Below, piece after piece: positions 14,737 through 62,588 of a stretch of 64,000 nucleotides of DNA. The position numbers and the translations under genes are program-made. Source of the DNA: Candidatus Levyibacteriota bacterium (GTDB lineage: Bacteria; Patescibacteriota; Microgenomatia; Levybacterales; GWA1-39-11). Every line of letters begins with the position of its first letter. The stretch's first letter is position 1. The notes beneath the pieces were generated by a model. The model saw nothing but the letters and a program-made list of their open reading frames with translations, did no database searches and was not told the DNA's origin. The stretch covers positions 11,211 to 75,210 of the forward strand of contig JAGORM010000002.1 in assembly GCA_018062815.1 (NCBI GenBank), written 5' to 3'.

Positions 14737-17112
14737 ATGCACCGATTCATCTTCAAAAAATTTGATACCACAAATGATTTTGTAAAAAGACACAAGAAAA
14801 CGGTCTTAATAATTCTTTCGGGTTTCATTTTTGTGGTCATTGTAGTGTTGATTAGCACTCTTTTTATAACAAAAAACTCAATTCATTCAAAAATTCCTGT
14901 AATTCCAACTCCAGTTGCGCTTCAAAATGAAGTTATGGATTATGCTTCAAATTTAAAGTTTAAAAAATACACGTCTCCTGAAAAAATAATCAAAGAGAAC
15001 CCGCTTTATACATATGAACTGAAAGACTCTTTTGCTCGGGAGGATGTTAAAAAAATTGCTGAAAACTTTTCTCTTTTAGATATCGCCTCAGAAGAGGGAT
15101 CGTATGTAACATACAGCGAGACGAAAGACATTAAAAAACTCGGTACATTTACTATGAACAAGGATAACGGATTTTTTACTTATCAGGCGTATAGTTTTCT
15201 TCCGGCTAGTTCATCCAATCCAAAAGACGCAGCAGTTTCGCTGATTAAGAAGCTTGGTTTTTCAGACGGAGACATAACATGCCCCATAACGTATCAACAG
15301 AAAGATGCCCCTGACATAACTTTTGTTGAGTGTCATAGAGATTGGAGTAGGCTCACTGCGCCTCTCTTTACACTTCCTGGAATTATAAATCATGGAGGAA
15401 ACTTCTCACTATCTACAATGGGTGGAGTAGGCATGGTAGATTCAGATGGTCCACTTGATCCAAATATAATAAACGTTTCTACTGGGCAGAATGGGAAAGC
15501 AAGACCAAATGATTTTAACTCTATAACTGTTGGTATTACTAAAAATGGGGCAATATATTCAGTATATTCAAGGATGAGGTTTATAACCGGTAAATCTCAA
15601 ATCGTTAAAAATTCATTGAAGACATATGAAGAAGCATTTTCAGAGATTACAAAAAATCCTACCTATTCATTTTCTATGCCAATTGGCGTTGGAATTGCTG
15701 ATTTTAGGAAGGTATATAAAAATGATGAGGCTGTGGCATTAGAAGCTCAATCTCATGAGTTAGGTATGGCGTACTTGGAATACATAAAAGGAAAACAAAA
15801 AGTGTATGAACCCTTTTATCTTTTATATGGGAGTGCTGAAATTACCTCCGGATATACAATTAAATATGTACAGGCGATCCCAGCAAGTAAATTATCTACT
15901 GCAAGAATTGCTCAGGAATCAACAAACTCACTTCAACTAAGAACATTTAAGCCACTTAATCCTACTCCTACAGTGGGAAGTAGTACCCCACAAAATCCAA
16001 TACCGGGCACACCAATTGAATCAGGGGGTGAAAATTGTCGGACAGGTCCAACGGAAGTAAACAATCATACAGGTGCTTATCCGTTGGTTATTCCGGGATA
16101 CGGAACAATGGTGGTTACCATAGAGGACTTTGGACATCCTTCAAATTTATGGATTTCTTCAATTGATCCGATTGATCCAGGAGTAGATACCACTGTTGTA
16201 GCGGCCAGGAACGCCTTTTTCACGTTTATAGGATATTATTTTGCCTCAGAATACCAAAAAGGGAAAACAGACACCTCTAAAACCGTAAAAGGATCAGGCG
16301 GAATTAAGAAATATTTGCAAGCTGGGGGTAGAATAGGCTCATTACCTTTTGATCAAAACGAATTGATTGCGGCAGTAGATTCCCCGCCCATGCTTAAACC
16401 ATCATTAACAAAAGTTATAAAGTCATTTGAGAAACACGCACTATCTGTTGATAATGGTAATGTCCTTCCTGACGTAGAATATACTGTGCCTGTAGCGTTT
16501 GATTCTTTGTTTTTCTTTGAGAGAAGGCGTGGCGGTAGCGGTCAATGCTATTTAACCGGCGCATCCGGTCCTTCACCTGTAATATTTATGTACTCTGATA
16601 CTCCTGTATCTGCTGAAATTATAAATAATTCGCAAATTACTTATGTTGAGCCAGGACTGGAGAACAAAAAGTGGAACGTGTTATTTGCAAAAGACGGAAT
16701 AACTCAGGCAAATGGGCATAAAAGAAGTTACTTGTATTATGAGTTTGATCGTGGAGTTAATTTTACTAACACAAATATGGGTTATTCTATAAAACGGGAA
16801 GATACATCTGACATTATAAATAAGATAGCAGATGAGCTAAAGCTTACTTCAAAAGAGGCTAGATACTTACATATTGAATTTGAAAAAGCCCTTTCAGACA
16901 TTAAGAGCTCTACTTATATTATGGTCATCTTGGCAGATAAAGATGAAGTTAATAAAAATCTTCCGTTAAAAATCCCTGTGGGAATAAATACCTACAGGTA
17001 CCATTTTCTGTTGTCTGGAACTGATGTAAAAATGCAACTTAATAATCCTAAACTTTCTGAAATAAAAAGAGACGGAGCGGTGCTGATAGAATTAGGGGCA
17101 TCACCAAAATAA
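14737..17112 (+). CDS. Large (791 aa) membrane-anchored extracytoplasmic protein, unknown function
   Basis: N-terminal TM (VLIILSGFIFVVIVVLISTLFI); otherwise no recognised motifs. Confidence 0.6.
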   Translation: MHRFIFKKFDTTNDFVKRHKKTVLIILSGFIFVVIVVLISTLFITKNSIHSKIPVIPTPVALQNEVMDYASNLKFKKYTSPEKIIKENPLYTYELKDSFAREDVKKIAENFSLLDIASEEGSYVTYSETKDIKKLGTFTMNKDNGFFTYQAYSFLPASSSNPKDAAVSLIKKLGFSDGDITCPITYQQKDAPDITFVECHRDWSRLTAPLFTLPGIINHGGNFSLSTMGGVGMVDSDGPLDPNIINVSTGQNGKARPNDFNSITVGITKNGAIYSVYSRMRFITGKSQIVKNSLKTYEEAFSEITKNPTYSFSMPIGVGIADFRKVYKNDEAVALEAQSHELGMAYLEYIKGKQKVYEPFYLLYGSAEITSGYTIKYVQAIPASKLSTARIAQESTNSLQLRTFKPLNPTPTVGSSTPQNPIPGTPIESGGENCRTGPTEVNNHTGAYPLVIPGYGTMVVTIEDFGHPSNLWISSIDPIDPGVDTTVVAARNAFFTFIGYYFASEYQKGKTDTSKTVKGSGGIKKYLQAGGRIGSLPFDQNELIAAVDSPPMLKPSLTKVIKSFEKHALSVDNGNVLPDVEYTVPVAFDSLFFFERRRGGSGQCYLTGASGPSPVIFMYSDTPVSAEIINNSQITYVEPGLENKKWNVLFAKDGITQANGHKRSYLYYEFDRGVNFTNTNMGYSIKREDTSDIINKIADELKLTSKEARYLHIEFEKALSDIKSSTYIMVILADKDEVNKNLPLKIPVGINTYRYHFLLSGTDVKMQLNNPKLSEIKRDGAVLIELGASPK

Positions 17113-32309: not shown

Positions 32310-34613
32310 TTATTCTTCAACAAAGCTGACCTCTATGGCCGTAAACCCTTTCCTGATGATTTTTTCAAATACAGGAGCCTTGGGTTTTATTGAAGGTTGA
32401 GAACTGTATTTTTTAATATAAAAAACAATATTTTTATAGGTATCAGGGTGAGGAGTAAAAGATATTGGTAGAATCTGTTTAGACAGTTCATCTGAATAGA
32501 AAGAAACAAAAAGATAAGGGCTTTTTATCTTTGCGGTAGAGGATACTAGATCCAATATTTCTTTTTTATTTAATCCTATGGAAAGACCAAAGCTTTTAAG
32601 TGTTTCCTCAAGCATATTGCCAGGAATGAGAACTCCATGTGTAGGTTTTTGGATGGTACGCAGTGCAGGAAGATAGTCAAATTCAAAACCTGATAAGACC
32701 TTGTCATCAACTAAAAAATCGCCGTTAGTAAGTAGCTTTGCGTTTAGTCCTTTTTCCGGAAGAACAGATGCGTTAATCGGATATATGGGTGTGCCAAATC
32801 TAATTGTGACATTTTTCCCTTGTTGCCCGTAAAGATAGAGCGGGCTATCATAGCATGCGTCTCCGGTGCCATTTGCTACCAAATTATTTGAAGAAGACCT
32901 TGTTGAGCTTGTGCTAAGCAGCCCGGCACGCTCCAAACACTCATAGCATATATTTGCTGAATCGTATGCTTCCTGAAGGCAAGTTCCATAGGCTGCAGTC
33001 ATTGGGTCAGGAGGTTTAGTTGAATCTCCAGTGAAATGGTAATTGCACCCCGCAATAGCCTCGTCCATGCAGAAGTTTCCCGTTCCTGTTTGTGGGGCCA
33101 GGGTTGGCTGTGGATTAGGCGGGAGTTCTGATTGTCTATCTTCACGTATAGGACCGAGTTTAGGCTCAATAACTATTGCTTGAAGGGATAGTGCATAGTT
33201 TTTCTCATTAAGCTCGGCAATTCTGTTTTTTGAAACCTGGGAGCCAAGCAAATTTTCTTTGGTAAATCCTAAGATTTGAAAGTAGGAGGGTACACTCAAT
33301 GGGAATATTTTTATGTTATTTGTTTTTTTATCATAAAAATAAAGTTTTTCGGCAAGCAGGGTATAATCTGCTCCCAAATTATTTATATAAGTGTTTGTCG
33401 GTGTTTTCCGTGTGATAAATGTTTGAGTGCTGTCTGTTCCTTCAATTACATACGCCTTATCGTCTAGTGCGACGGGAGCTACCATTTTGCTTACGTCTAT
33501 TTTTTTTGAGGTTTTAGTTGCAAGGTCAAACAAATATCTACCTGTTTTTTCTTGTTGAGTGGAAATTTTTTTATATATTATATTTCCTGAAAGAGAATCC
33601 CATTGTGCGTCAGTAATACTATCTGGTGCCACATTTAAAAGTCTTATTTTTTCTCTTGTTGCAGTGTCAAGGACATCTAATGTGTTTGTTGAGAGAATAA
33701 CTTTTCTGTATGCTCCTACAGCTTCAGCTCCGTTTCCGATTGACCCGTCATAGCCTGCGAACACAAAATATCTTCCGTCTTTAGACATTTCCGGTTGTGT
33801 TCCATATGTTCCGTTTTCCAAAGATTGAATTGGAGTTTTTACTTCTCCATTAATGGATGAGTAGCTCATGCCGTAAGCCATTCCCACTCCGGAGTTAGGG
33901 AGAAATGTATCAGTAAACACCTCACCATTATTTGTAACTCCCACAGGGTAGTGAACGGGAGATGTTGTAGAGGAAGTCTCACTGTATAAAAGATACTGCT
34001 TATTGTTTGTCGTATCCACTGAATAAACCCTGGACTCTCCACCAATTAGTTGCGATGCGTTTGGAAGAGGTTTAACTGCCCATATTGCAAGATATTTTCC
34101 GTTCGGCGATATTCTGTAGTCATCAATCCCAAAACCGTCTGAAATCGTAAAAAGAGTCACTTCCTTTTTCTGTGTAGTATCATTTTTGACAATTTGCGTT
34201 CCATAATCCCAGGAATTTGTATTTGCAATATAAGATATGACTGAAGGTGTTAGTATCCTTATGTGTTTTATGTTTTTAGGTAGTTCTGTGAGTATTTTTT
34301 CTTTTTGTTGCGTCAGATCAATAAGTCCAACTGAGACTCCGCTTGTACTTCTAAAGGCATAGACGATTGAATTTGGTGATTTTTCCTTTGTCTGACTATT
34401 TTTTACCGTTAAAGATTTTTTAATCGCCTCATTCTTTCTAGATTCCGTATTTTTTTCAACCGTAACTGAAACTATATTAATTATACCTAACAATATGACT
34501 ATGAGAATAGCTGCGGAAAATATAATAAATAATTTCTTGTGCCTATTTAGTAGGTTGGATTGATTATTTAATAGTGATGGATCTGGTGCTAATTGTTGTT
34601 GAGATTCATCCAT
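32310..34613 (-). CDS. Large (767 aa) membrane-anchored extracytoplasmic protein with PD40-like beta-propeller repeats and a Cys-rich module
   Basis: N-terminal TM (LFIIFSAAILIVILLGIINIV); PD40-like ISPNGKYLAIWA and MSKDGRYFVFAG; Cys cluster (CMDEAIAGCNYHF...CLQEAYDSANICYECLERAG...ACYDSP). Confidence 0.6.
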   Translation of the reverse strand: MDESQQQLAPDPSLLNNQSNLLNRHKKLFIIFSAAILIVILLGIINIVSVTVEKNTESRKNEAIKKSLTVKNSQTKEKSPNSIVYAFRSTSGVSVGLIDLTQQKEKILTELPKNIKHIRILTPSVISYIANTNSWDYGTQIVKNDTTQKKEVTLFTISDGFGIDDYRISPNGKYLAIWAVKPLPNASQLIGGESRVYSVDTTNNKQYLLYSETSSTTSPVHYPVGVTNNGEVFTDTFLPNSGVGMAYGMSYSSINGEVKTPIQSLENGTYGTQPEMSKDGRYFVFAGYDGSIGNGAEAVGAYRKVILSTNTLDVLDTATREKIRLLNVAPDSITDAQWDSLSGNIIYKKISTQQEKTGRYLFDLATKTSKKIDVSKMVAPVALDDKAYVIEGTDSTQTFITRKTPTNTYINNLGADYTLLAEKLYFYDKKTNNIKIFPLSVPSYFQILGFTKENLLGSQVSKNRIAELNEKNYALSLQAIVIEPKLGPIREDRQSELPPNPQPTLAPQTGTGNFCMDEAIAGCNYHFTGDSTKPPDPMTAAYGTCLQEAYDSANICYECLERAGLLSTSSTRSSSNNLVANGTGDACYDSPLYLYGQQGKNVTIRFGTPIYPINASVLPEKGLNAKLLTNGDFLVDDKVLSGFEFDYLPALRTIQKPTHGVLIPGNMLEETLKSFGLSIGLNKKEILDLVSSTAKIKSPYLFVSFYSDELSKQILPISFTPHPDTYKNIVFYIKKYSSQPSIKPKAPVFEKIIRKGFTAIEVSFVEE

Positions 34614-52552: not shown

Positions 52553-52615
52553 GCGGCTATTATAGGCTTAAATTGTATTAAAGGCAAATATTGTTTGCCT
52601 GCGGAAAATTTTAAG

Positions 52616-52687
52616 TCGGGGATGGCAGATTTGAACTGCCGACCTCACGGTCCCGAACCGTGCGCGCTACCACTGCGCCAATCCCCG
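52616..52687 (-). tRNA. tRNA-Pro (CGG)
   Basis: Minus-strand reading CGGGGAT-TG-GCGC-AGTGGTA-GCGC-G-CACGG-TTCGGGA-CCGTG-AGGTC-GGCAG-TTCAAAT-CTGCC-ATCCCCG-A. G37 as expected for Pro; no encoded CCA. Confidence 0.75.
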
Positions 52688-52785: not shown

Positions 52786-52858
52786 GACTCCGTAGCTCAA
52801 TGGATTGAGCAGTCCCGTCCTAAGGGAAAGATTGCGAGTTCGACTCTCGCCGGGGTCA
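52786..52858 (+). tRNA. tRNA-Arg (CCT)
   Basis: GACTCCG-TA-GCTC-AATGGATT-GAGC-A-GTCCC-GTCCTAA-GGGAA-AGATT-GCGAG-TTCGACT-CTCGC-CGGGGTC-A. One G-U in the acceptor and a G27:A43 mismatch; the 3' trailer reads CACCA, so no directly encoded CCA. TGGTAGAAT -10-like box at 52743-52751. Confidence 0.6.
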
Positions 52859-52924
52859 CACCACTGGTTAGTAATAATTTTGAATAGTAGTAGTACTTCT
52901 AATAATTTTGTATAGTAATTAGTA

Positions 52925-54214
52925 ATGATTGATGCTCCCGAACTTCAAAAACCAACAAAATTAAAACAAAACATTCTAAGAGTACGCGAGGCAAAAGATG
53001 TGGCAAGAGTATTTGAAACTAGAATAGTTGGTCGAACAAGTAATGAATTTAGAGAGATATGTTATAGTGCTGATCTTGTCCTTGGAGGATTGGAAAACGA
53101 ATACGAGCATTTTATAACACAAAAATTCACTGAGCTTGAATCTTATCTAGATACTTCTTACGATAACTTACGCGAACATCACAATGAAGGATTCCGTAAG
53201 TTCCTACTCCAACAGTATCGTACTTATAAAAAAGAACAACCAAGCAGTGTTGATTCTTTAAAAGAAGAAGAAAGTATAAAGGATCTTGCTATCGGATATA
53301 CATTTGACTACATAAGAACACTAACACTTGGTAAGAGAATGGGGATAAGCTCAAAAAACGCACTTATGTTAGCAGAAGTTTCTCATTGGAATACTCCTAA
53401 TGTGCTTATTTCCCTTGCAAAAAAGTTTCCAGATGCAGATCCAAATGTTATTTTTAATGCTGCGGCGCACCGCCCAGCACATCCAGAAGATTTTCTAAGA
53501 GAAGTTCTTGAAGCAATCCCAAGACTTCAAGAGAAGTTTCCTGATATGGATCTCGGAATTATTAAAGGGGCTGCAACTAATTATCGATCAGCTCCCGAAC
53601 AGTATCTCCAAGGTGTGAATGATGCAATCCCAAGACTTCAAGAGAAGTTTCCTGATATAGATCTTGGAACAATTAAAAAAGCGGCTAGTGACTACTCCTC
53701 TGACCCAGAAGAATTTATCCAAGGCGTCATTACCACAGTTTCCAAATTGAGGGAAAAGTTTCCTGAAGCTGATGTTCGCTTGCTTAAAACTGCCGCAAAC
53801 ATGCACCCTCTCGATCCTGAAGGATTTGTTAATAAAGTAACTGAAAGGGTGCAGAGCCTACAAGCAAGCTTTCCAGAGATTGACTTGAGAATCATTAAAA
53901 CTGCTGCAATAAGTTACGGATCGAACCCCGAAGTATTTATCAGGAAAGTCTTGTCTGATATTCCAGACCTGCAATTAAAATTTCCTGATATCCCCCTTTC
54001 TGTTATTAAAGCTGTCGTGATTAGTCACACATCAGATTCCGAAGGTTTCATCAGAAATGTGTCTGAAAAAGCTCCTGGGTTGCAAAAAGAGTTTCCTGAT
54101 TTATCAGCAAGCGTGGTTTATCGTGCTTTAATTGGCTATCGGGATCCGCAGACCTTTCTAAGAGAAGTTCAAAATAGAATTCAAGCCTCATTAAAGCAGC
54201 GGAATCAGGCGTGA
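52925..54214 (+). CDS. Tandem-repeat protein: ~150-aa N-terminal domain plus 7 copies of a ~37-aa helical repeat (consensus xIPxLQEKFPDxDLxxIKxAAxxYxSxPExFIxxV)
   Basis: Repeat units visible in the translation. At DNA level, ATCCCAAGACTTCAAGAGAAGTTTCCTGATAT occurs twice (53515-53546 and 53625-53656). Confidence 0.65.
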   Translation: MIDAPELQKPTKLKQNILRVREAKDVARVFETRIVGRTSNEFREICYSADLVLGGLENEYEHFITQKFTELESYLDTSYDNLREHHNEGFRKFLLQQYRTYKKEQPSSVDSLKEEESIKDLAIGYTFDYIRTLTLGKRMGISSKNALMLAEVSHWNTPNVLISLAKKFPDADPNVIFNAAAHRPAHPEDFLREVLEAIPRLQEKFPDMDLGIIKGAATNYRSAPEQYLQGVNDAIPRLQEKFPDIDLGTIKKAASDYSSDPEEFIQGVITTVSKLREKFPEADVRLLKTAANMHPLDPEGFVNKVTERVQSLQASFPEIDLRIIKTAAISYGSNPEVFIRKVLSDIPDLQLKFPDIPLSVIKAVVISHTSDSEGFIRNVSEKAPGLQKEFPDLSASVVYRALIGYRDPQTFLREVQNRIQASLKQRNQA

Positions 54215-55224: not shown

Positions 55225-55947
55225 ATGGAGGGTCGGTTGACTAAGAAGGAGCGTAGGGAGCAGAAAAGACTTGATATGACAGATAAAATGGAAGAAAAAC
55301 CTCAGAAAACAAAATTTATAATTATTTTTCTGGTTTGTATTTTGTTTCTGGGATTTGCCGTGTTTGCAATCTATTCAAGCAAGATGTCGCAAAGCAAAAG
55401 AGCAAGCACATCAGTTTCATTTTCACCATCAGGTTGGGTAACGGGAAATAAAAATTCATCAGTTACGGTAACAGAGTTTGGGGATTTTCAGTGTCCGGCA
55501 TGTTCTGCTTATGAGACTACTATGCGCAAAGTAAGAAGCGAATATGGCAATAAAGTAAAAATTGTCTTTAAGCACTTTCCGCTTAGGCAAGCACATCCAA
55601 ATGCGTTTCCTTCAGCAATTGCAGCCGAAGCAGCTGGAAAACAGGGGAAATTTTGGGAATTTCACGATTTATTATATGACAATCAAAACACATGGGCAAA
55701 TCTTCCGAATCCGACCCCGGAGTTTATAAAATATGCAGAAAAATTAAAATTAGATCCTGACTTATTTAAAAAAGAACTTGAAAATGGTGAGCATAGCCAG
55801 GTTATAACAGCTCAGGAAGACGAAGGTATAAAAATAGGAGTAAACGCAACGCCTACGGTATATGTAAATGGTATGTATATGGGGGTTCCAAGCTATGAGG
55901 ATTTAAAGAAAAAAATAGACGATGCACTTCTCGCCTCTAAAAAATGA
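55225..55947 (+). CDS. DsbA-like thiol:disulfide oxidoreductase, membrane anchored
   Basis: TM FIIIFLVCILFLGFAVFAIY; thioredoxin-fold CxxC FGDFQCPACSAYE; 240 aa. Confidence 0.75.
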   Translation: MEGRLTKKERREQKRLDMTDKMEEKPQKTKFIIIFLVCILFLGFAVFAIYSSKMSQSKRASTSVSFSPSGWVTGNKNSSVTVTEFGDFQCPACSAYETTMRKVRSEYGNKVKIVFKHFPLRQAHPNAFPSAIAAEAAGKQGKFWEFHDLLYDNQNTWANLPNPTPEFIKYAEKLKLDPDLFKKELENGEHSQVITAQEDEGIKIGVNATPTVYVNGMYMGVPSYEDLKKKIDDALLASKK

Positions 55948-55948
55948 T

Positions 55949-56506
55949 ATGGATACATCTTTTGCTCCGATCATATCTTTTTTTGCTCTCGGAACGCTCG
56001 CATTAAATATTGGTATTTTTTTAGGGATTGTTGTTCTTTTAGTTGAAAACTTGTCAAATAAGAAATCTATATTCACGCATGCCTCAGAATTTGTGCACAA
56101 AAACTCATTGCTGCTTGCGTTTTTGATAGCTACTATGGCAACACTTTCAAGTCTTTTCCTGTCAGAGATTGTGCTTTTTCCCCCCTGCAAATTGTGTTGG
56201 TATCAGCGTATTTTTATGTATCCTCAGGTAATTATTTTGGGTGTTGGATTATTATTAAATGATAAAATGGCTAAACTTTATGCACTTATTTTAAGCGTTA
56301 TAGGTTTAATGATTGCAGCTTATCATATTTTATTGCAGTTCTTTCCTGGAATTTTTCCTTGCACGGATGAGATAGCAAGCTGTGCTCTCAAGCAATTTGA
56401 CTATTTTGGATACATAACTATTCCTGTTATGTCTGCTTCTGCATTTGCCGCGATAATTGTTATATTAGTTTTTGGCTATCAAAAACACCGCAAGATTTCA
56501 TCTTGA
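55949..56506 (+). CDS. DsbB/BdbC-like disulfide bond formation membrane protein
   Basis: 4 TM; Cys pairs CKLCWYQR (loop 1) and FPCTDEIASC (loop 2). ATG one nt after the dsbA-like stop (track start 55922 overlaps upstream gene). Confidence 0.7.
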   Translation: MDTSFAPIISFFALGTLALNIGIFLGIVVLLVENLSNKKSIFTHASEFVHKNSLLLAFLIATMATLSSLFLSEIVLFPPCKLCWYQRIFMYPQVIILGVGLLLNDKMAKLYALILSVIGLMIAAYHILLQFFPGIFPCTDEIASCALKQFDYFGYITIPVMSASAFAAIIVILVFGYQKHRKISS

Positions 56507-56546: not shown

Positions 56547-57266
56547 ATGTCTAAGAAGCAAATTATTAAATTCCTCGTGCTGCGTACTTTAGGAAATTTT
56601 CTGGTTTTGTTTATGATCTTTGGATTTATTGCAACTTTTGGCCCTGCTCTTTTTTATGAAGTAAGATTCAGGATTGAAGAGGCAAGAGGAGTAAAGTATG
56701 AACTGCCAAATACTGAACCTTCCGAGCTTGCAAAAATAATTCAGAAAAGAAAAGCATTACAACAGCCAACCCAAAATTTACTTGGCTCAGTGCTTTCAGA
56801 TAAAAAAGTACAAATTTTAACACCGGTTGATACTAGTTTTTCTGTTGTAATTCCAAAAATTGGCGCAAATGAAAGGGTAACCCCCAATGTAAATCCTGCG
56901 GATGGAGGAGAGTACTTAGAAGTTTTAAAACACACAGTTGCTCATGCTCGCGGGACATCCCTTCCAGGATTAAACGGTACGACTTATCTTTTTGCGCATT
57001 CTGCTGATAATTTTTGGGATGTAGGGCGCTATAATGCAGTCTTTTACTTATTAAAAGACTTGCAGATAGGAGATGATATTTCCGTTTTCTTCAATGATAA
57101 ACGTTACAATTACACAGTATATGATAAAAAAATTGTAGATCCTAGTGAGGTGGGGTATTTGGCTGCAAATATTGGGCAAGGAGAACGCCTTATATTGCAA
57201 ACCTGTTGGCCGCCGGGCACAACGTGGAAGCGGTTACTTATCTTTGCTAAGCCTAAAAACACTTAA
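56547..57266 (+). CDS. Sortase-family transpeptidase
   Basis: N-terminal TM; active-site His region YLFAHSADNFW; catalytic Cys in the TLxTC-type motif LILQTCWPPGT. Confidence 0.7.
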   Translation: MSKKQIIKFLVLRTLGNFLVLFMIFGFIATFGPALFYEVRFRIEEARGVKYELPNTEPSELAKIIQKRKALQQPTQNLLGSVLSDKKVQILTPVDTSFSVVIPKIGANERVTPNVNPADGGEYLEVLKHTVAHARGTSLPGLNGTTYLFAHSADNFWDVGRYNAVFYLLKDLQIGDDISVFFNDKRYNYTVYDKKIVDPSEVGYLAANIGQGERLILQTCWPPGTTWKRLLIFAKPKNT

Positions 57267-57336
57267 TATTAACTGGATTAGGAAAATTCCTACCTCTTGT
57301 TATGACAAATGGTTTGATAACGAGTATAATTATTTT

Positions 57337-59559
57337 ATGAACAATTCAGGAGGAAATTCGCAGGATAAATTAGTTCATCTAATGGTTAGAAATCCTAAAG
57401 ATGATGAGACTCCAATTCAGGCTGCGACACAAATTTTTTCAGGAATTCTTCCTCATTCATTCATCCCGCTTTGGAAACGTATGTATGTTCATCCCTCAGT
57501 CTTTGCTTTTGAATTGTTTCTGATAAATCAGTCGGCATCTTTTTATGTTACCGCACCGCAAGAAAAAGAAACAGTTGTCTCAAGTCTTATTTCATCATCT
57601 TTTCCAAAATCTAATATTGCTAAAACTACTGACCCCATGGTGGAAGTTTTGAAGGCGAAGCATATTGTATATGGACAGATGGTTTTAGATTCCTATTCTT
57701 ATCTGCCTATAAAAACATATGCTGACTTTGAAGACGTAGATCCACTATCTGCGCTTTTAGGTTTTTTAGGCAAGCAAGATGAGAATACTCAAATGGCGGT
57801 TCAAATTTTAGTAACTCCTGCGCTTTTTGATTGGCAACATAAGGCAGTAGACATGGCTGGTCATATGGTTTTAGATGCGCCCGGAGCACCAAATGATCCA
57901 AATGAAAAAGCTCGTTATTCGCAAAATCCCCAAAAACTGCTCATGATGCAAAAAGCGTCTTTTGTAGGCGGTAAAGCAGTGGTACGTTTGGTGGTGGGCA
58001 GTGACAGCGCTGAGAAGGCAAAACACGAGCTGCATAACCTAGCGGGTATTTTTGGTACTTTTTCACAGGGGGAGGGTAATCAATTTGTTTTAAAACGCCC
58101 TAGAATTAGAAAGAAAGTGTTGCTCGCGAGGATAAAAGACAGAAAAACTGGAATTTTTGAACGTCGGAATCAAGTATTAAACGCACAGGAGTTGGCGACT
58201 TTATGGCATCCTCCTGGATTTCTTCTTTCAGGAATAAGAAATGTAGCATGGGGGAAGACACTTCTTGGGGAGCCTCCGGAGAATCTACCCGTTATAACTG
58301 GGATGACTGAAGATGAAAAACAAAAAGTAAACTTTTTTGCAAAGACAGAATATAAAAACAAAGATACAATATTCGGAATAAAAGATGCTGACAGGAGAAA
58401 ACACATCTATGCAATTGGTAAAACCGGTGCGGGTAAATCTACACTAATTGCAAATATGGCTATTGATGATATTCGGAAGGGAAGAGGTGTTGGGATAATA
58501 GATCCTCATGGTGACTTGTCAGAAACAATTTTGGATTATATTCCAAAAAGACGTTTGAATGATGTTGTATATCTGGAACCGTTTGATGTAGAGAGGCCCT
58601 TCTCATTAAATGTGCTTGAAGTCCACAATAGACAGCATAAAGATTTGATTGCATCAGGAATTGTATCTATTTTCCATAAGATTTATGGAGATAGCTGGGG
58701 TCCTCGATTGGAATATATACTGAGGAATGTTATCTTAACACTTTTGGATATAGAGGAGGGAACACTTATAGATGCATTGAGGTTATTGTCAGATAATTCA
58801 TTTAGGGCAAGTGTAGTTCCCCGTCTGAGTGATCCTGTTCTAAGAAATTTTTGGGTAGGTGAATTTGATAAAATGTCTGATAAATTAAGGGCAGAGGCAG
58901 TGTCTCCTATTCAGAATAAGATTGGGCAATTTGTCTCAAGCAGCATGATAAGAAATATCATTGGGAACAAAACGTCAAGCATTAATCTTTCAGAAATTAT
59001 GGATGAGGGGAAAATACTCATTCTAAATTTATCTCAAGGGAAATTGGGAGAAGACAATGCAGCTTTACTGGGCGCTATGATAATTACACAAATCCAACTT
59101 GCCGCAATGAATAGGTCATATGTTAAGGAAGAAGATAGACGGGATTTTTTCCTCTATGTTGATGAGTTTCAAAATTTTGCCACAGAGTCTTTTGCAAAAA
59201 TTTTATCAGAGGCAAGGAAATATAGACTTTCATTAACTCTTGCAAACCAATATGGTGACCAATTGGAAGAGGAAATACAGAGGGCAATTTTTGGTAACGC
59301 AGGAAGTATCATATCATTTGTAGTAGGAGCAAGAGATGCATATATGTTAACTCGGGAATTTGCCGAAGTATATTCTGAAAATGATTTAGTATCCCTTGGG
59401 AAATTTGAAACAGTAGTGAAGTTGTCTATTGACGGAATGACATCCGGGCCATTTCCGGCAGTGACATTACCGCTACCAAGTTTGAAGAATGATAATAGAG
59501 AGGATATTATAAGAAATAGCCGTGAACGTTATGGTAGAAAGCCTTCAAAAAACTTTTAA
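57337..59559 (+). CDS. HerA/VirB4-superfamily (DUF87/AAA_10-like) P-loop ATPase
   Basis: ~360-aa N-terminal domain, Walker A AIGKTGAGKSTL followed by GIIDPHGD (HerA/DUF87-like DPHGEY signature), Walker B FLYVDEFQNF, then ARKYRLSLTLANQ (RK/Q sensor region typical of the FtsK-HerA-VirB4 clade). Start set at MNNSGGNS (ATG 57337); the track start 57145 overlaps the sortase gene. Confidence 0.7.
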   Translation: MNNSGGNSQDKLVHLMVRNPKDDETPIQAATQIFSGILPHSFIPLWKRMYVHPSVFAFELFLINQSASFYVTAPQEKETVVSSLISSSFPKSNIAKTTDPMVEVLKAKHIVYGQMVLDSYSYLPIKTYADFEDVDPLSALLGFLGKQDENTQMAVQILVTPALFDWQHKAVDMAGHMVLDAPGAPNDPNEKARYSQNPQKLLMMQKASFVGGKAVVRLVVGSDSAEKAKHELHNLAGIFGTFSQGEGNQFVLKRPRIRKKVLLARIKDRKTGIFERRNQVLNAQELATLWHPPGFLLSGIRNVAWGKTLLGEPPENLPVITGMTEDEKQKVNFFAKTEYKNKDTIFGIKDADRRKHIYAIGKTGAGKSTLIANMAIDDIRKGRGVGIIDPHGDLSETILDYIPKRRLNDVVYLEPFDVERPFSLNVLEVHNRQHKDLIASGIVSIFHKIYGDSWGPRLEYILRNVILTLLDIEEGTLIDALRLLSDNSFRASVVPRLSDPVLRNFWVGEFDKMSDKLRAEAVSPIQNKIGQFVSSSMIRNIIGNKTSSINLSEIMDEGKILILNLSQGKLGEDNAALLGAMIITQIQLAAMNRSYVKEEDRRDFFLYVDEFQNFATESFAKILSEARKYRLSLTLANQYGDQLEEEIQRAIFGNAGSIISFVVGARDAYMLTREFAEVYSENDLVSLGKFETVVKLSIDGMTSGPFPAVTLPLPSLKNDNREDIIRNSRERYGRKPSKNF

Positions 59560-59598: not shown

Positions 59599-60375
59599 GT
59601 GTATAATGCCAATATGGTGAAACACCTTATTCCATTGTTGTGTGTAATGCTTCTATGTATTCTTTTTGTTGTTTTTTCATCTACCATTTCAAAACCCATA
59701 GATTTTTTAGTTAATACTTTGTCTTTTCCGCGTATGGTACTGCATAGTTCAGTATATGCTCAGGGTAAGCTGACAAGAGAAGACACTCTACTAATTGAAA
59801 ATAAAAAGTTGAGTGAAGAGTTGGTAAAAATGGAGTCATTAAAAAAGGATAATGATGCGCTTCGTTCACAATTCCAAGAAACCACCTATCTCTCAACAAA
59901 TCTGCTTCCCGCAAAAGTTGTAGGTTTCACTGGGGCATTGAATAATCCAAACGCGCTTATTTTGGATCAGGGAGAAAAAAATCATGTAAAGTCTGGGATG
60001 GCAGTTATAGTTGGCGTAAATTTAGTTGGTAAAATTGGAAAAACTACAAGTTGGAGTTCGGAATTGATCTTGCCCGTGAGTAAAAAATTTTCCACTCTGG
60101 GAGTTTCCGCATCACACAATAGCCCTGGAATTGTAAAGGGTGAAGAAGACTTTATAATGTTTGAGAATGTTGTTATCACAGATTCTATATCAAAAAACGA
60201 AATGGTAATAACAAAAGGGGAGAAAAGTTTAGGCGGTATAGGTATTCCACCGGATTTAATAATAGGAAAGATCATGCTTGTAAATAAATCGGAAACACAA
60301 CCATTTCAGAACGCACAAATAAAAAGCTTAATAGATTTTAAAAAATTAACAACAGTTTTTATAATTACAAAGTAG
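59599..60375 (+). CDS. mreC: Rod shape-determining protein MreC
   Basis: N-terminal TM, coiled-coil (LIENKKLSEELVKMESLKKDNDALRSQF), beta-domain GMAVIVGVNLVGKIGKTT and C-terminal SLGGIGIPPDLIIGKI, matching the MreC pattern. Confidence 0.7.
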   Translation: MYNANMVKHLIPLLCVMLLCILFVVFSSTISKPIDFLVNTLSFPRMVLHSSVYAQGKLTREDTLLIENKKLSEELVKMESLKKDNDALRSQFQETTYLSTNLLPAKVVGFTGALNNPNALILDQGEKNHVKSGMAVIVGVNLVGKIGKTTSWSSELILPVSKKFSTLGVSASHNSPGIVKGEEDFIMFENVVITDSISKNEMVITKGEKSLGGIGIPPDLIIGKIMLVNKSETQPFQNAQIKSLIDFKKLTTVFIITK

Positions 60376-60379
60376 CAGT

Positions 60380-60817
60380 ATGATTTTCCAAATATTATTT
60401 ATTTTTCTTCTTACAGTTGCATTATTGGTAGAAATTTCAATAATTCCTTTCCCTTTTGTTTTTATGTTTTCCGTATTGTATTTTTTCTATTCAAGAAAGT
60501 TAATTACTATTTTTATAATTTTATTTTTTTCAATGTTATTGGATAGGGCACAATTACATACACTAGGTGTAAGTTCTTTTTTCTTTTTCTTTTTCTTTTG
60601 TATTGTTACAGTACTAGAGAAATCGTTTTCTATCAAGGCGACTTCTTTATTTGCAGCATTTGCGGTACTAATAAGTGTTGAGATTTATAGAAATTATGTA
60701 GGCTATCCTTTTTTGCCGGCTTTTGAAGTACTGCTAATTCTATTTCTTGTAGCACTTATCATGCTTGAACGTTTCATTAATAAGAAAGAGGGGTCGTTAT
60801 ATGACAAAGAAATATAA
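60380..60817 (+). CDS. mreD: Rod shape-determining protein MreD (polytopic membrane protein)
   Basis: 145 aa, 4-5 TM helices, positioned between mreC and the PBP2 gene. Confidence 0.55.
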   Translation: MIFQILFIFLLTVALLVEISIIPFPFVFMFSVLYFFYSRKLITIFIILFFSMLLDRAQLHTLGVSSFFFFFFFCIVTVLEKSFSIKATSLFAAFAVLISVEIYRNYVGYPFLPAFEVLLILFLVALIMLERFINKKEGSLYDKEI

Positions 60818-62588
60818 AACTGGAATAGCTTTTTCTGATTTTGTAACACAAGAGCGGTCTATGTTTTCCTCAGGGAAAAAGACTTCTTCTGTTTTTCACC
60901 CTTCGGAGTTGTTGCTAATGATACCTGCATTTTTACTAATTTGCCTTTTTCTGATCCTTTTTTTAAGGCTTTTTTACGTTCAGGTAGTGCAAGGGGCTTA
61001 TTATTCAAGCCTATCCGATCAAAATAGAACGAGAACAATAACTATACCAGCAGCAAGAGGCATAATTTTTGATAGGTTTAACCGTCCTCTTGTTCGGAAT
61101 GTTCCCATATTTGAGATATTTGAAAACAAAAAAGCAAAATTAATCGAAAAAGATCAAGCCTTACAATTAATAAGTCAGGGAAAAGACGTGAAGGATACAA
61201 TTACGCGCGAATATTTATACAGTAGTAATTTTGCAAACATTTTAGGATACACTGGGCAGATTTCTGAAGAAGAACTTAATAGCGCAGAATATAAGAATTA
61301 CGTCATAACAGATTTTGTAGGTAAAATGGGACTTGAAGATGAATATGAAAAAATTCTTCATGGTGAAAATGGGCGCGAGTTGTATGAAGTAAATGCAGCA
61401 GGTGAAAAAAGTAGATTTCTTGGGAGACAGGAGCCTATTTCAGGAGGAAATATTACGTCTACGTTGGATATAGATATTCAGTTGGCAGCTGCAAACGCGA
61501 TGAAAAGTGTTAGTAAAGGCGCGGTTGTTGTATCAAGTCCCAAAGATGGTGGAATATTAGCTATGTATACAAAGCCTACATTTGACAGTAATATATTTAC
61601 TCATTCAAAAGAATATCAAGCAGAAGGGGATTATAAGGATGTAATGTCCATTCTTTCAGATACTGAGAATCAACCATTATTAGACAGGGCAATTGGAGGA
61701 GTATATCCTCCTGGTTCAACGTTTAAACTTGTTACTGCTGTCGCAGCTCTGTCATCAGGCGCCATAAAAGCAGACACAAAAATTGAGGATACAGGGGTTT
61801 TAAAAGTTGGGAGTTTTTCTTTTGGAAATTGGTATTTCTTGCAGCACGGAAGAAAGGATGGGTTTGTAGATGTAGTTGCCGCTATAAAACGTTCAAATGA
61901 CATATTTTTCTACAAAGCAGCGGATGAAACAGGAGTTGATACGCTTAGTCGTTGGGCAATGCAGTTTGGATTAGGAAATCCCCTGGGAATAGATCTTCCG
62001 GGTGAAGTAGCCGGTACGGTTCCGACTCGTGAATGGAAAGATAGAGTTATCTCCGAGCAGTGGTATTTAGGGGATACCTTTAATTACGGCATAGGACAGG
62101 GATACTTATTGACAACTCCATTACAGATTAACTTTATGACTACAGTTTTTGCAAATGGGGGAGTCTTGTATAAGCCGCATATAATACAAGGAACAGAAAA
62201 AAAATTACGGGAAAATTTGGTAAAAAAAGAATATCTTAATTTAGTATTGCAGGGAATGAAAGAGAGTTGTGAGGAGGGTGGAGTAGCCTGGCCATTTTTT
62301 GATTTTAAGGTTAAAAATGATACGTTGAAAATAGATAATACAAATTATGTACAGGATGCATCAGGGAGCAGTAAAATGGTGCGGGTTAAAGTGGGGTGTA
62401 AGACAGGTACTGCGGAAACTGGAGGAAAAGAAACAAAGCCGCATGCCTGGATTACGGTGATTGCCCCCTTCTATAATCCGGAAGTGGTAGTGACTGTTTT
62501 AGTAGAAAATGGAGGGGAGGGGTCTAGTGTTGCGGGACCAGTTGCTCGTGATATTTTAAAAGTATATTTTGAGAAGAAAAAGAATTAA
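60801..62588 (+). CDS. mrdA: Penicillin-binding protein 2 (peptidoglycan D,D-transpeptidase MrdA)
   Basis: N-terminal anchor plus dimerisation-domain pattern RLFYVQVVQGAYYSSLSDQNRTRTITIPAARGIIFDRFNRPL; transpeptidase SxxK (STFKL), SxN (SND), KTG (KTGTA). Start at MTKKYKTG (track start 60765). Confidence 0.85.
   Translation: MTKKYKTGIAFSDFVTQERSMFSSGKKTSSVFHPSELLLMIPAFLLICLFLILFLRLFYVQVVQGAYYSSLSDQNRTRTITIPAARGIIFDRFNRPLVRNVPIFEIFENKKAKLIEKDQALQLISQGKDVKDTITREYLYSSNFANILGYTGQISEEELNSAEYKNYVITDFVGKMGLEDEYEKILHGENGRELYEVNAAGEKSRFLGRQEPISGGNITSTLDIDIQLAAANAMKSVSKGAVVVSSPKDGGILAMYTKPTFDSNIFTHSKEYQAEGDYKDVMSILSDTENQPLLDRAIGGVYPPGSTFKLVTAVAALSSGAIKADTKIEDTGVLKVGSFSFGNWYFLQHGRKDGFVDVVAAIKRSNDIFFYKAADETGVDTLSRWAMQFGLGNPLGIDLPGEVAGTVPTREWKDRVISEQWYLGDTFNYGIGQGYLLTTPLQINFMTTVFANGGVLYKPHIIQGTEKKLRENLVKKEYLNLVLQGMKESCEEGGVAWPFFDFKVKNDTLKIDNTNYVQDASGSSKMVRVKVGCKTGTAETGGKETKPHAWITVIAPFYNPEVVVTVLVENGGEGSSVAGPVARDILKVYFEKKKN

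Follow-up and report, generated by a model that had tools for sequence, protein, structure and literature searches.

The gene analysed here, which encodes a P-loop ATPase between a sortase and MreC, raises the question of which family such a protein belongs to and which partners it might serve. For nucleotides, lipids and amino acids Patescibacteria are dependent on other cells, and how macromolecules cross their envelope is a question of central importance that is still open. A preliminary description had taken the gene for a stand-alone HerA-like ATPase in an envelope operon. We examined it within the window, that is, the whole 64-kb stretch of DNA analysed, which belongs to a Levybacteria (Microgenomates, CPR) genome.

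The gene, its start and its promoter-like element

The reading frame is a real ORF of 740 codons running from ATG to stop (Table 1). The homologue P0001, 95% identical, is likewise 740 aa long, and the other homologues start no more than about 10 residues away from this ATG. A longer start at GTG-57145 was rejected, as it would run into the sortase CDS in a different frame without gaining a hydrophobic segment, and the homologues begin at the position of the ATG. No TM segment was found in the 740-aa protein: the 19-residue Kyte-Doolittle mean peaks at 1.22, compared to 2.3-2.8 for the anchors of the neighboring sortase, MreC and MreD. The lack of a membrane anchor had thus been recognized correctly. 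The N-terminal anchor typical of a coupling protein is absent, no upstream extension is possible, and correcting the start does not yield a canonical VirD4 with TM helices. GC content at the gene is ordinary, and no paralogue was found in the window.

Immediately before the ATG lies a promoter-like element, the top-scoring site (11/12) in a promoter scan of 54-63.5 kb. Two related loci (L004 and L005) keep both hexamers and their spacing, with the sequence farther upstream diverged. The element, which ends 6 nt before the ATG, suggests that the gene has its own transcript, probably a leaderless one.

Table 1. Features of the T4CP-like gene and of its neighbors (positions in the 64-kb window).
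Feature	Position	Strand	Remarks
CDS, TM-less T4CP-family ATPase (DUF8128 N-domain + VirD4/TrwB-type NTPase)	57337..59559	+	740 aa
Promoter-like element ATGACA-17 nt-TATAAT	57302..57330	+	6 nt before ATG; consensus match only
N-terminal domain	57364..58236	+	aa 10-300; alpha/beta fold like VirB4/TrwK N-terminal domain; homologues annotated PF26449 (DUF8128)
ELATLWHPPG motif at domain boundary	58189..58218	+	E285, H291, P293 invariant across a diverse N-domain alignment (A2)
VirD4/TrwB-type nucleotide-binding domain	58372..59481	+	aa ~346-715
Walker A GKTGAGKST	58417..58443	+	aa 361-369; invariant in 50 homologues
IIDPHGD motif	58495..58515	+	aa 387-393; aligns with TrwB IVDPNGD; invariant in 50 homologues
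Helical insertion between Walker A and Walker B	58627..58956	+	aa ~431-540; position of T4CP all-alpha domain
Walker B FLYVDEFQNF	59149..59178	+	aa 605-614; invariant in 50 homologues
ARKYRLSLTLANQ, Arg/Lys + Gln sensor region	59212..59250	+	aa 626-638; invariant in 50 homologues
DsbA-like	55225-55947		Pfam
DsbB	55922-56506		Pfam
Sortase	56547-57266		Pfam
MreC	59599-60375		Pfam
Polytopic 145-aa ORF in MreD position			No Pfam match
PBP2	60765-62588		Pfam

An intact VirD4/TrwB-type ATPase

The motifs picked out in the preliminary description (GKTGAGKST, IIDPHGD, the DEFQNF Walker B and the sensor) are all present and do not vary among the homologues. Walker A, Walker B and the Arg/Gln sensor of an FtsK-HerA-type nucleotide-binding domain align with the motifs of TrwB, the sensor region ARKYRLSLTLANQ pairing with TrwB GRKAGLRVVAGLQ, and identity over this domain is 84-89% among 49 homologues. 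At the level of sequence, the 740-aa protein is shown to carry an intact P-loop motor of FtsK-HerA type and of the T4CP kind, and its earlier placement in the FtsK-HerA-VirB4 clade is borne out by motifs and profiles alike.

The Pfam TrwB_AAD_bind alignment runs through the helical insertion, which has a mean identity of 75% among homologues. AF2 places helices across aa 432-534, with moderate pLDDT values of about 55-86, a block that may correspond to the TrwB all-alpha domain. The full-length model is poor in the ATPase half, where pLDDT falls below 50 for aa 590-711.

A VirB4-like N-terminal domain

By fold, the protein possesses a VirB4-type N-terminal domain, TrwK/VirB4 being the top structural match for both models. 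This link is one of fold comparison only, since a profile of 25 diverse N-domains found no match among PDB sequences at E<=10. The mean identity of the domain among homologues is 63%. Precomputed PF26449 matches exist for P0001, for the majority of homologues and for distant relatives, so that the 740-aa protein is a putative DUF8128 member by homology. A counterpart of the boundary motif is recognizable in the plasmid T4CPs of Embleya (ELAALAHLP) and Bacillus. The domain does not have the fold of a HAS barrel.

The fold favors a reading in which the protein is not a coupling protein but serves a divergent T4SS as its assembly ATPase, VirB4; VirB4 proteins also commonly lack TM segments (PMC11823120). 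However, while the fold is like that of TrwK/VirB4, detectable sequence similarity is absent, and the ATPase attached to it is of VirD4 type, not VirB4 type. At E<=1, no Pfam match was obtained with CagE_TrbE_VirB, AAA_10 or P-loop_TraG, and the NCBIfam VirB4_plasma model reaches 15.7 against a cut-off of 590, so that the C-terminal half does not qualify as a VirB4-type ATPase.

Family assignment

On the coupling-protein side, the Pfam models TrwB_AAD_bind (32.4 bits, cut-off 20.5) and T4SS-DNA_transf (22.4 bits, cut-off 20.1) score above their gathering cut-offs, TraG-D_C (21.7 bits) lies just below its cut-off of 22, and the best PDB sequence match is TrwB. Of the Pfam families proposed beforehand for this comparison, T4SS-DNA_transf was recovered above cut-off, while AAA_10 remained unmatched, TraG-D_C fell marginally short and DUF87 matched weakly. 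The FtsK_SpoIIIE profile gave no match at E<=1 and, with no TM segment either, the protein does not qualify as FtsK/SpoIIIE. The NCBIfam equivalogs CedD, CD1115 and TraD all score far under their cut-offs, which places the protein in none of these named subfamilies.

The best NCBIfam match is CedD (2.6e-9), whose score of 36 bits, where the cut-off is 600, argues that the protein is not a CedD equivalog. CedD, from the DNA-import Ced system of Sulfolobales, is VirD4-like too. Its gene in Sulfolobus is not clustered with the rest of the system, and some orthologues lack a TM like the 740-aa protein; however, CedD is archaeal, and a DUF8128-type N-domain has not been reported for it. It acts in import, not export (PMC11823120), and is thus an example that a T4CP can serve import.

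The label of HerA-like ATPase gives way to the VirD4/TrwB family. HerA helicases, which act in repair and defence, belong to the same FtsK-HerA P-loop superfamily. A reading as the HerA-type core helicase of a system for defence or DNA-end processing, with its partner elsewhere, would account for the weak DUF87/HerA match in Pfam (5.8e-6) and for the PADLOC matches to HerA (5e-6), mad8 (3e-15) and DndH (3e-4). The PADLOC similarities are confined to the ATPase domain, scores with the NCBIfam HerA models are 11-18 bits where 850-970 would be required, and the HAS-barrel N-domain and NurA, Sir2 or other partner of HerA helicases are missing. NurA, Sir2, DUF4297, Dnd or MADS partners are absent from every locus examined, and neither the core-gene-like conservation nor the syntenic housekeeping contexts are typical of defence islands. 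GC content is unremarkable and no relative occurs in 2.9 M viral contigs, two observations on which a phage origin was rejected as well. A HerA core is hardly credible, and a defence system was discarded as a candidate.

We conclude from the sequence comparisons that the 740-aa protein is an anchor-less member of the VirD4/TraG/TrwB coupling protein (T4CP) family, in a subfamily with a VirB4-like N-terminal domain. Canonical T4CPs (TrwB of R388, VirD4, DotL, Cag-beta) differ from it in having N-terminal TM anchors, in being encoded with T4SS or relaxosome genes and in lacking the VirB4-like domain of ~300 aa.

Plasmid coupling proteins with the same architecture

The T4CP of an Embleya sp. NBC_00896 plasmid (WP_331738717.1) is collinear with the 740-aa protein over nearly its full length (30% identity, E 1e-85), whereas the VirB4-like ATPase of the same plasmid matches in the ATPase core only (E 2e-5). 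This T4CP is flanked by the VirB4-like ATPase and a relaxase, in a cluster of the order TrbL/VirB6 - PrgI/VirB3 - VirB4-like - T4CP - Replic_Relax - NlpC/P60. In hhalign comparisons, the N-domain matches that of the Embleya T4CP with a probability of 98% (E 2e-13) and that of a TM-less Bacillus plasmid T4CP with a probability of 99.2% (E 9e-20). The latter, from Bacillus sp. F19 (USK36540.1), adjoins Replic_Relax and TcpC, so that TM-less forms do exist in real conjugation loci.

Both plasmid proteins share the two-domain layout of a DUF8128-like N-domain followed by a T4CP ATPase, the Embleya protein with an N-terminal TM, the Bacillus protein, like the 740-aa protein, without. These loci show that the same two-domain protein acts as a T4CP in Gram-positive conjugative plasmids. 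The plasmid genes lie beside a relaxase (Replic_Relax) and T4SS genes, whereas the window gene is chromosomal, has no such neighbors and is far more conserved. It may nevertheless be of plasmid origin, its closest characterizable relatives being on plasmids.

The plasmids also bear on the VirB4 reading. The far closer match to the Embleya T4CP, the presence of a separate VirB4-like gene on plasmids with the same architecture, the TraG-D_C and TrwB_AAD_bind signatures and the absence of the VirB3/VirB6/VirB8 neighbors that are usual for Patescibacteria virB4 (PMC12102498) make it quite improbable.

Genomic neighborhood

Pfam searches of the neighbors and of the large ORFs of the window agree with the earlier observation that the gene sits between sortase and MreC with no adjacent T4SS or defence partner. 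Searches of the window's large ORFs yielded no VirB4, relaxase, nuclease, Sir2 or further P-loop partner. Across ~85 related loci there are no relaxase, nuclease or defence genes, and the 8-10 kb around the soluble form are free of T4SS genes; the nuclease, Sir2 or DUF4297 partner that had been suggested was thus found neither among the large ORFs of the window nor in these loci. The other loci present unrelated housekeeping contexts such as YidD-FtsH, YidC-Band_7...GroES/EL, GT-C/GT2 and Wzy_C. When all ORFs of 78 loci were clustered, each family found next to the gene was limited to a single lineage, and conserved neighbors were rejected as functional partners. The neighbors that do recur are a GT-C-like membrane protein (Roizmanbacteria), YidD-FtsH (some Levybacteria), YtxH and a small XRE regulator, none of them T4SS-related.

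An envelope or cell-shape factor working with sortase, DsbAB or MreCD-PBP2 would fit the local order: mreC starts 39 nt downstream with no terminator-like site seen in between, and the order T4CP-mreC-(mreD)-pbp2 is kept in the six closest genomes despite a divergence of MreC to 45-56% identity. However, the adjacency to sortase and MreC is confined to these six genomes and missing from 72 of the 78 related loci, ~2.9-3.9 kb of variable genes separate the gene from sortase in L006-L009, the gene has its own conserved promoter-like element, and the protein has no resemblance to envelope enzymes. We consider such a role very improbable indeed. The adjacency to sortase and mreCD-pbp2 is a lineage-specific gene order and not a functional module, and the envelope operon originally proposed does not hold.

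Relatives in Patescibacteria

In a survey of 3,035 Patescibacteria genomes, T4CP homologues occur in 96% (2,918) and VirB4 in 80%, and only 148 of 5,713 t4cp genes lie near virB4 (PMC12102498, Quinonero-Coronel et al. 2025). In Microgenomatia, VirB3 homologues have an associated virB4 in only 22.6% of cases, and relaxases are nearly missing from the phylum (PMC12102498). The gene of the window, from the same phylum and likewise without virB4 beside it, very probably belongs to this published set of dispersed t4cp genes. The preliminary description was right that no partners are adjacent, but the stand-alone state is not peculiar to this copy: it is the rule for the T4CP family in Patescibacteria and has already been published (PMC12102498). 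The main text of that survey is silent on the N-terminal domain, the split between TM-less and TM-anchored forms, the level of conservation and the fusions, which are worked out here.

Relatives 64-96% identical to the 740-aa protein are found in at least 534 species genomes, and the family is more conserved than MreC, PBP2, DsbA and sortase of the same loci. Among relatives, two distinct branches include proteins with an S1 RNA-binding domain fused at the C-terminus, and another branch has a NUDIX fusion. Of four loci encoding TM-anchored Patescibacteria forms with this N-domain, two have T4SS genes nearby: VirB2-like pilins with dnaN in one and a 1710-aa TrbL_3 protein in the other.

Proposed role

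The best reading, to which we give about an even chance, is that of a T4CP-family ring ATPase that docks through its VirB4-like N-domain onto T4SS-type membrane partners encoded elsewhere. The protein would assemble into a ring like other T4CPs, and the N-domain would substitute for the TM helices by docking on VirB3/PrgI-, VirB8/TcpC- or VirB6-like T4SS subunits. Once docked, the ATPase would use ATP for substrate recruitment or threading, and the likeliest substrate would be single-stranded nucleic acid. Its partners would be the chromosomal T4SS of Patescibacteria, in Microgenomatia usually near dnaA/dnaN, outside the window.

Several observations count against this T4SS-coupled reading. 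No T4SS genes lie near the soluble form, and the protein is far more conserved than reported for Patescibacteria T4SS parts. The S1 and NUDIX fusions point to RNA or nucleotide chemistry. Besides the near absence of relaxases, t4cp is reported as non-essential in Southlakia epibionticum while its T4SS is essential (PMC12102498), and the authors of the Cell 2023 study recognized no coupling protein in its T4SS cluster.

A T4SS-independent housekeeping role is a serious rival, if on the unlikely side. Here, an exapted former coupling protein would now be a core cytoplasmic or membrane-peripheral nucleic-acid motor, for example for imported DNA/RNA in nucleotide salvage or for RNA/chromosome remodelling. 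The breadth and level of conservation, the invariably housekeeping contexts and the fusions favor it, as do the occurrence of T4CP homologues in more genomes than VirB4 and the reported dispensability of t4cp in Southlakia. The survey authors themselves raise exaptation of the dispersed T4CPs (PMC12102498), and the best NCBIfam match, though far under cut-off, is a DNA-import ATPase. On the other hand, the VirB4-like docking domain is kept and well conserved, which suggests a T4SS-type partner; the gap between 96% and 80% may simply stem from incomplete MAGs, in which t4cp is present at ~two copies per genome; the fusions are infrequent, at 3 of ~40 full-length cluster representatives; and TM-less forms of the same protein occur in bona fide conjugation loci. 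A related and rather doubtful proposal is that CPR/Patescibacteria have domesticated a near-universal, hyper-conserved anchor-less coupling-protein paralogue as a core non-conjugative nucleic-acid motor, with VirB4-type docking on a non-T4SS or minimal partner. If so, it could, for instance, act at the membrane in nucleotide salvage, feeding or receiving DNA/RNA derived from the host.

The assignment removes a false lead, that of a HerA defence core or an envelope-operon gene. It also offers testable handles: the VirB4-like domain, for which docking on VirB3/VirB8-type partners is predicted, the use of the same two-domain protein as coupling protein in Gram-positive plasmids, and the distinct soluble and TM-anchored forms. 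With T4CP-like ATPases in ~96% of genomes (PMC12102498) and a conservation tighter than that of cell-wall enzymes, the protein stands out as a strong candidate for a central component of envelope traffic in Patescibacteria.

Intact catalytic motifs without a membrane anchor

The ATPase reading frame is real and correctly delimited: P0001, a homologue 95% identical to it, is likewise 740 aa long, and the sole longer reading, from a GTG at 57145, overlaps the sortase CDS with no hydrophobic gain. The Walker and sensor motifs noted in the preliminary description are present, and none of the four varies across 50 aligned homologues. No TM segment was found in the ATPase, where the highest Kyte-Doolittle mean in 19-residue windows is 1.22; the anchors of sortase, MreC and MreD next to it score 2.3-2.8 in the same scan. 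The ATPase therefore combines intact catalytic motifs with the absence of a TM segment, as first described.

Coordinates of the ATPase, its motifs and other features (window positions unless a related locus, L, is named)
Feature	Position	Strand	Description
ATPase ORF	57337 (ATG)-59559 (stop)	+	740 aa
GKTGAGKST	aa 361-369 of ATPase
IIDPHGD	aa 387-393 of ATPase
FLYVDEFQNF	aa 605-614 of ATPase
ARKYRLSLTLANQ	aa 626-638 of ATPase
Promoter-like site	57302-57337 region		ATGACA-17-TATAAT
tRNA-Pro	52615-52687	-
tRNA-Arg	52786-52859	+
Repeat-protein gene	52925-54214	+	429 aa
111-nt unit (TRF)	53509-53724		inside repeat-protein gene
Large ORF, no Pfam match	6752-8413	-	553 aa
Large ORF, no Pfam match	14737-17112	+	791 aa, single N-terminal anchor
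Large ORF, no Pfam match	32310-34613	-	767 aa, single N-terminal anchor
DsbB ORF over end of DsbA-like gene	55922-55947		26-nt overlap
PBP2 ORF as listed (TTG 60765) over MreD-position ORF	60765-60817		53-nt overlap
Secreted repeat protein	L006 7283-7885, L007 7297-7899, L008 7128-7733, L009 7266-7862		~200 aa
P0153	L089 6201-9494		soluble; C-terminal NUDIX fusion; 8-member cluster
P0126	L090 7371-10298		soluble; C-terminal S1 RNA-binding domains
P0235			TM-anchored relative; C-terminal S1 RNA-binding domains
PFLF01 copies	L047 2687-4861, L073 5205-7358		soluble
Sigma70_r4 + HARE-HTH gene	L095 85-1173, L096 2857-3852		precedes TM-anchored relative

Assignment of the C-terminal half

In Pfam, TrwB_AAD_bind (6e-8, aa 353-645), T4SS-DNA_transf and DUF87 all lie above the gathering cut-offs, with TraG-D_C narrowly below. 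The best PDB sequence match is TrwB, with the Walker A/DPxGD and Walker B/RK...Q blocks aligned. Using aa 331-740, tblastn matched 657 plasmid records (best 38% identity, E 4e-86), whose annotations name T4SS DNA-binding, TraM-recognition or DUF87 proteins. The best NCBIfam matches are VirD4-like (CedD, CD1115, TraD), likewise far from equivalog scores. By these profiles and matches, the C-terminal half is assigned to the coupling-protein ATPases of the type IV coupling protein (T4CP) family. The initial HerA/VirB4-superfamily call holds for the FtsK-HerA-type motifs, and the Pfam, PDB and plasmid matches place the protein specifically among the T4CPs. Scores against the NCBIfam HerA, VirB4, CedB and FtsK-type models are far under their cut-offs, and a HerA identity for this half was rejected. 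A HerA-type defence core, a lead raised earlier, is extremely improbable given these scores and the absence of nuclease or defence genes from any locus compared.

A VirB4-like N-terminal domain shared with plasmid T4CPs

Precomputed annotations of ATPase homologues include PF26449 (DUF8128), of which we found no mention in the literature searched. With aa 1-330 as query against 1.84 billion cluster representatives, 635 clusters matched at E<=1e-3, and every full-length representative among them has a Walker A ~330-450 residues in. The N-domain profile gave no sequence match in the PDB. An AF2 model built from a 25-sequence alignment of diverse N-domains has a pLDDT of 89.4 and a pTM of 0.86, and each of its top six Foldseek matches falls on a TrwK/VirB4 chain from the R388 machine (probability 1.00). 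Since the query lacks the P-loop and the hit list holds no VirB4 C-domain-only, TrwB or HerA structures, the match is to the N-terminal domain of VirB4, and the N-terminal 300 residues are, by fold, a domain of this type. That the ATPase is itself a VirB4 is nevertheless very improbable: this identity was rejected for the C-terminal half on the NCBIfam score, and the VirB4-like ATPase of an Embleya plasmid aligns over the P-loop core only (E 2e-5).

The same Embleya plasmid encodes an 812-aa T4CP, one of the 657 plasmid matches, collinear with the ATPase from residue 43 to 736 (E 1e-85), in a cluster comprising TrbL/VirB6-like, PrgI (VirB3), VirB4-like ATPase (P-loop_TraG, AAA_10), T4CP, Replic_Relax and NlpC/P60. 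The N-domain is found in this T4CP (hhalign 98%, E 2e-13), preceded by one TM helix, and in a TM-less Bacillus plasmid T4CP (99.2%, E 9e-20) whose gene adjoins Replic_Relax and TcpC. Orthologue-like T4CPs thus exist on plasmids, and the common N-domain defines a distinct subfamily with a VirB4-like N-domain and a VirD4-type motor. To our knowledge, canonical TrwB and VirD4, in contrast, lack such a domain, their N-termini being TM helices only.

Conservation and variants

A pattern-limited scan of species-representative genomes counted at least 534 that encode a relative; the best 80 of these are Levy-, Roizman-, Gottesmanbacteria and other Microgenomates (64-96% identity). The best genome match, at 96% protein identity, is DAIQMY010000003.1, from a MAG of Candidatus Levyibacteriota, and the same architecture recurs in >2,700 homologues of ~720-755 aa. 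Across six syntenic genomes, identity is 79-96% for the ATPase, 71-93% for sortase, 54-91% for PBP2, 45-82% for MreC and 48-85% for DsbA. Among 49 homologues it reaches 89% and 84% in the two halves of the nucleotide-binding domain and 63% in the N-domain. The ATPase is under very strong purifying selection.

In more distant Patescibacteria relatives, a single TM helix at the N-terminus precedes the shared N-domain. T4SS genes lie beside such anchored forms in two of four loci: a pair of VirB2-like pilins with dnaN at one, and a 1,710-aa TrbL_3/VirB6-like protein at the other. Most long relatives have low-complexity tails, and three carry folded C-terminal fusions (Table). A Sigma70_r4 + HARE-HTH protein preceding two TM-anchored relatives is a possible dedicated regulator. 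One Roizmanbacteria MAG, PFLF01, holds two soluble copies (73% mutual identity), either true paralogues or a mixed bin, in keeping with published phylum-wide figures of approximately two t4cp copies per genome. Many species-representative MAGs with this Microgenomates gene (e.g. L005-L007) are publicly titled 'uncultured Gammaproteobacteria bacterium', which appears to be a submission labelling artefact.

Gene neighbourhood and promoter

Pfam confirms DsbA-like, DsbB, sortase, MreC and PBP2 as neighbours; the MreD position holds a polytopic 145-aa ORF without a Pfam match. As originally observed, T4SS partners are missing nearby: among the large ORFs of the 64-kb window there is no VirB4, no relaxase and no further P-loop partner, nor was an ATPase paralogue found in the window. 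The PBP2 ORF overlaps the MreD-position ORF, so its true start is probably further downstream; DsbB likewise overlaps the DsbA-like gene.

In a tblastn comparison with 83 related loci, DsbA-DsbB-sortase upstream and MreC-(MreD)-PBP2 downstream were confined to the six closest genomes (L004-L009, >=79% identity), four of which have ~2.9-3.9 kb of variable genes between sortase and ATPase. Directly upstream of the ATPase gene, L006-L009 encode a secreted repeat protein rich in Gly, Asn and Thr (TGGNNANGN... motifs), which has no Pfam match and which L004, L005 and the window lack. When all the ORFs of 78 loci were clustered de novo, the contexts proved lineage-specific: other Levybacteria have YidD-FtsH upstream; Roizmanbacteria have GT2 and a GT-C-like membrane protein of ~1,100 aa upstream and YtxH downstream; and distant soluble relatives lie in VanW-SBP-x-YidC-Band_7-[gene]-GroES-GroEL (P0153, P0126) or next to a Wzy_C protein. 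A small XRE regulator adjoins the gene in ~10 loci. No soluble-form locus compared contains T4SS, relaxase, nuclease or defence genes, and the ATPase has no conserved partner. The proposed "envelope operon" does not extend beyond the six closest genomes, and an envelope role, to which the sortase and MreC neighbours had pointed, is very improbable.

Genes for the insertion and quality control of membrane proteins (YidD, YidC, FtsH, SPFH/Band_7) recur as neighbours across lineages, with YidD-FtsH upstream in L011, L012, L014 and L018 and YidC-Band_7 in L089 and L090. The recurrence may stem from a functional link, or from an ancestral position near the origin, in the rnpA-yidD-yidC region that T4SS loci of Patescibacteria tend to occupy.

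The top promoter-like site of 54-63.5 kb ends 6 nt before the ATG, and its near-consensus -35/-10 pair is kept at equivalent positions in the two closest genomes, L004 and L005, which suggests a separate, probably leaderless transcript. No terminator-like site was found between the ATPase gene and mreC.

Elsewhere in the window, a tRNA-flanked gene encodes a protein of ~37-aa repeats (FPDxDLxxIKxAA...) whose Pfam match (2.7e-16) is to CUE, a ubiquitin-binding domain of eukaryotic type, here encoded by a CPR bacterium; tblastn did not find the protein in the 96%-identical relative L004. The 791-aa and 767-aa ORFs are probably surface proteins.

Possible role

Dispersed t4cp genes in Patescibacteria are already published (Quinonero-Coronel et al. 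2025, PMC12102498): among 3,035 genomes, VirB4 occurs in 2,417 and VirD4-like T4CPs in 2,918 (5,713 copies, only 148 near virB4), relaxases are nearly absent, and exaptation cannot, according to the authors, be excluded. Wang et al. (2023) recognised no coupling protein in the Southlakia T4SS cluster. The apparent novelty lies in the domain assignment, the tie to a T4CP subfamily of Gram-positive plasmids, the soluble/anchored split and the exceptional conservation; the protein should be labelled an anchor-less ATPase of the T4CP family whose N-domain is VirB4-like.

A housekeeping translocase independent of T4SS, the main alternative, is possible though doubtful; it would fit the conservation, the housekeeping gene contexts, the S1/NUDIX fusions of relatives and the finding that in Southlakia t4cp is not essential, the T4SS being essential (PMC12102498). 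We give about even chances to the ATPase working with the chromosomal Patescibacteria T4SS, a role favoured because the docking domain is kept, TM-less versions function in conjugation loci and TM-anchored paralogues lie near T4SS genes. In Sulfolobales, the VirD4-like CedD takes part in DNA import; its gene lies away from the remaining ced genes, and some of its orthologues are TM-less. In a T4SS-linked role, the ATPase would assemble as a ring, its VirB4-like domain would dock it onto VirB3/VirB8/VirB6-type subunits encoded elsewhere, and its substrate would be nucleic acid.
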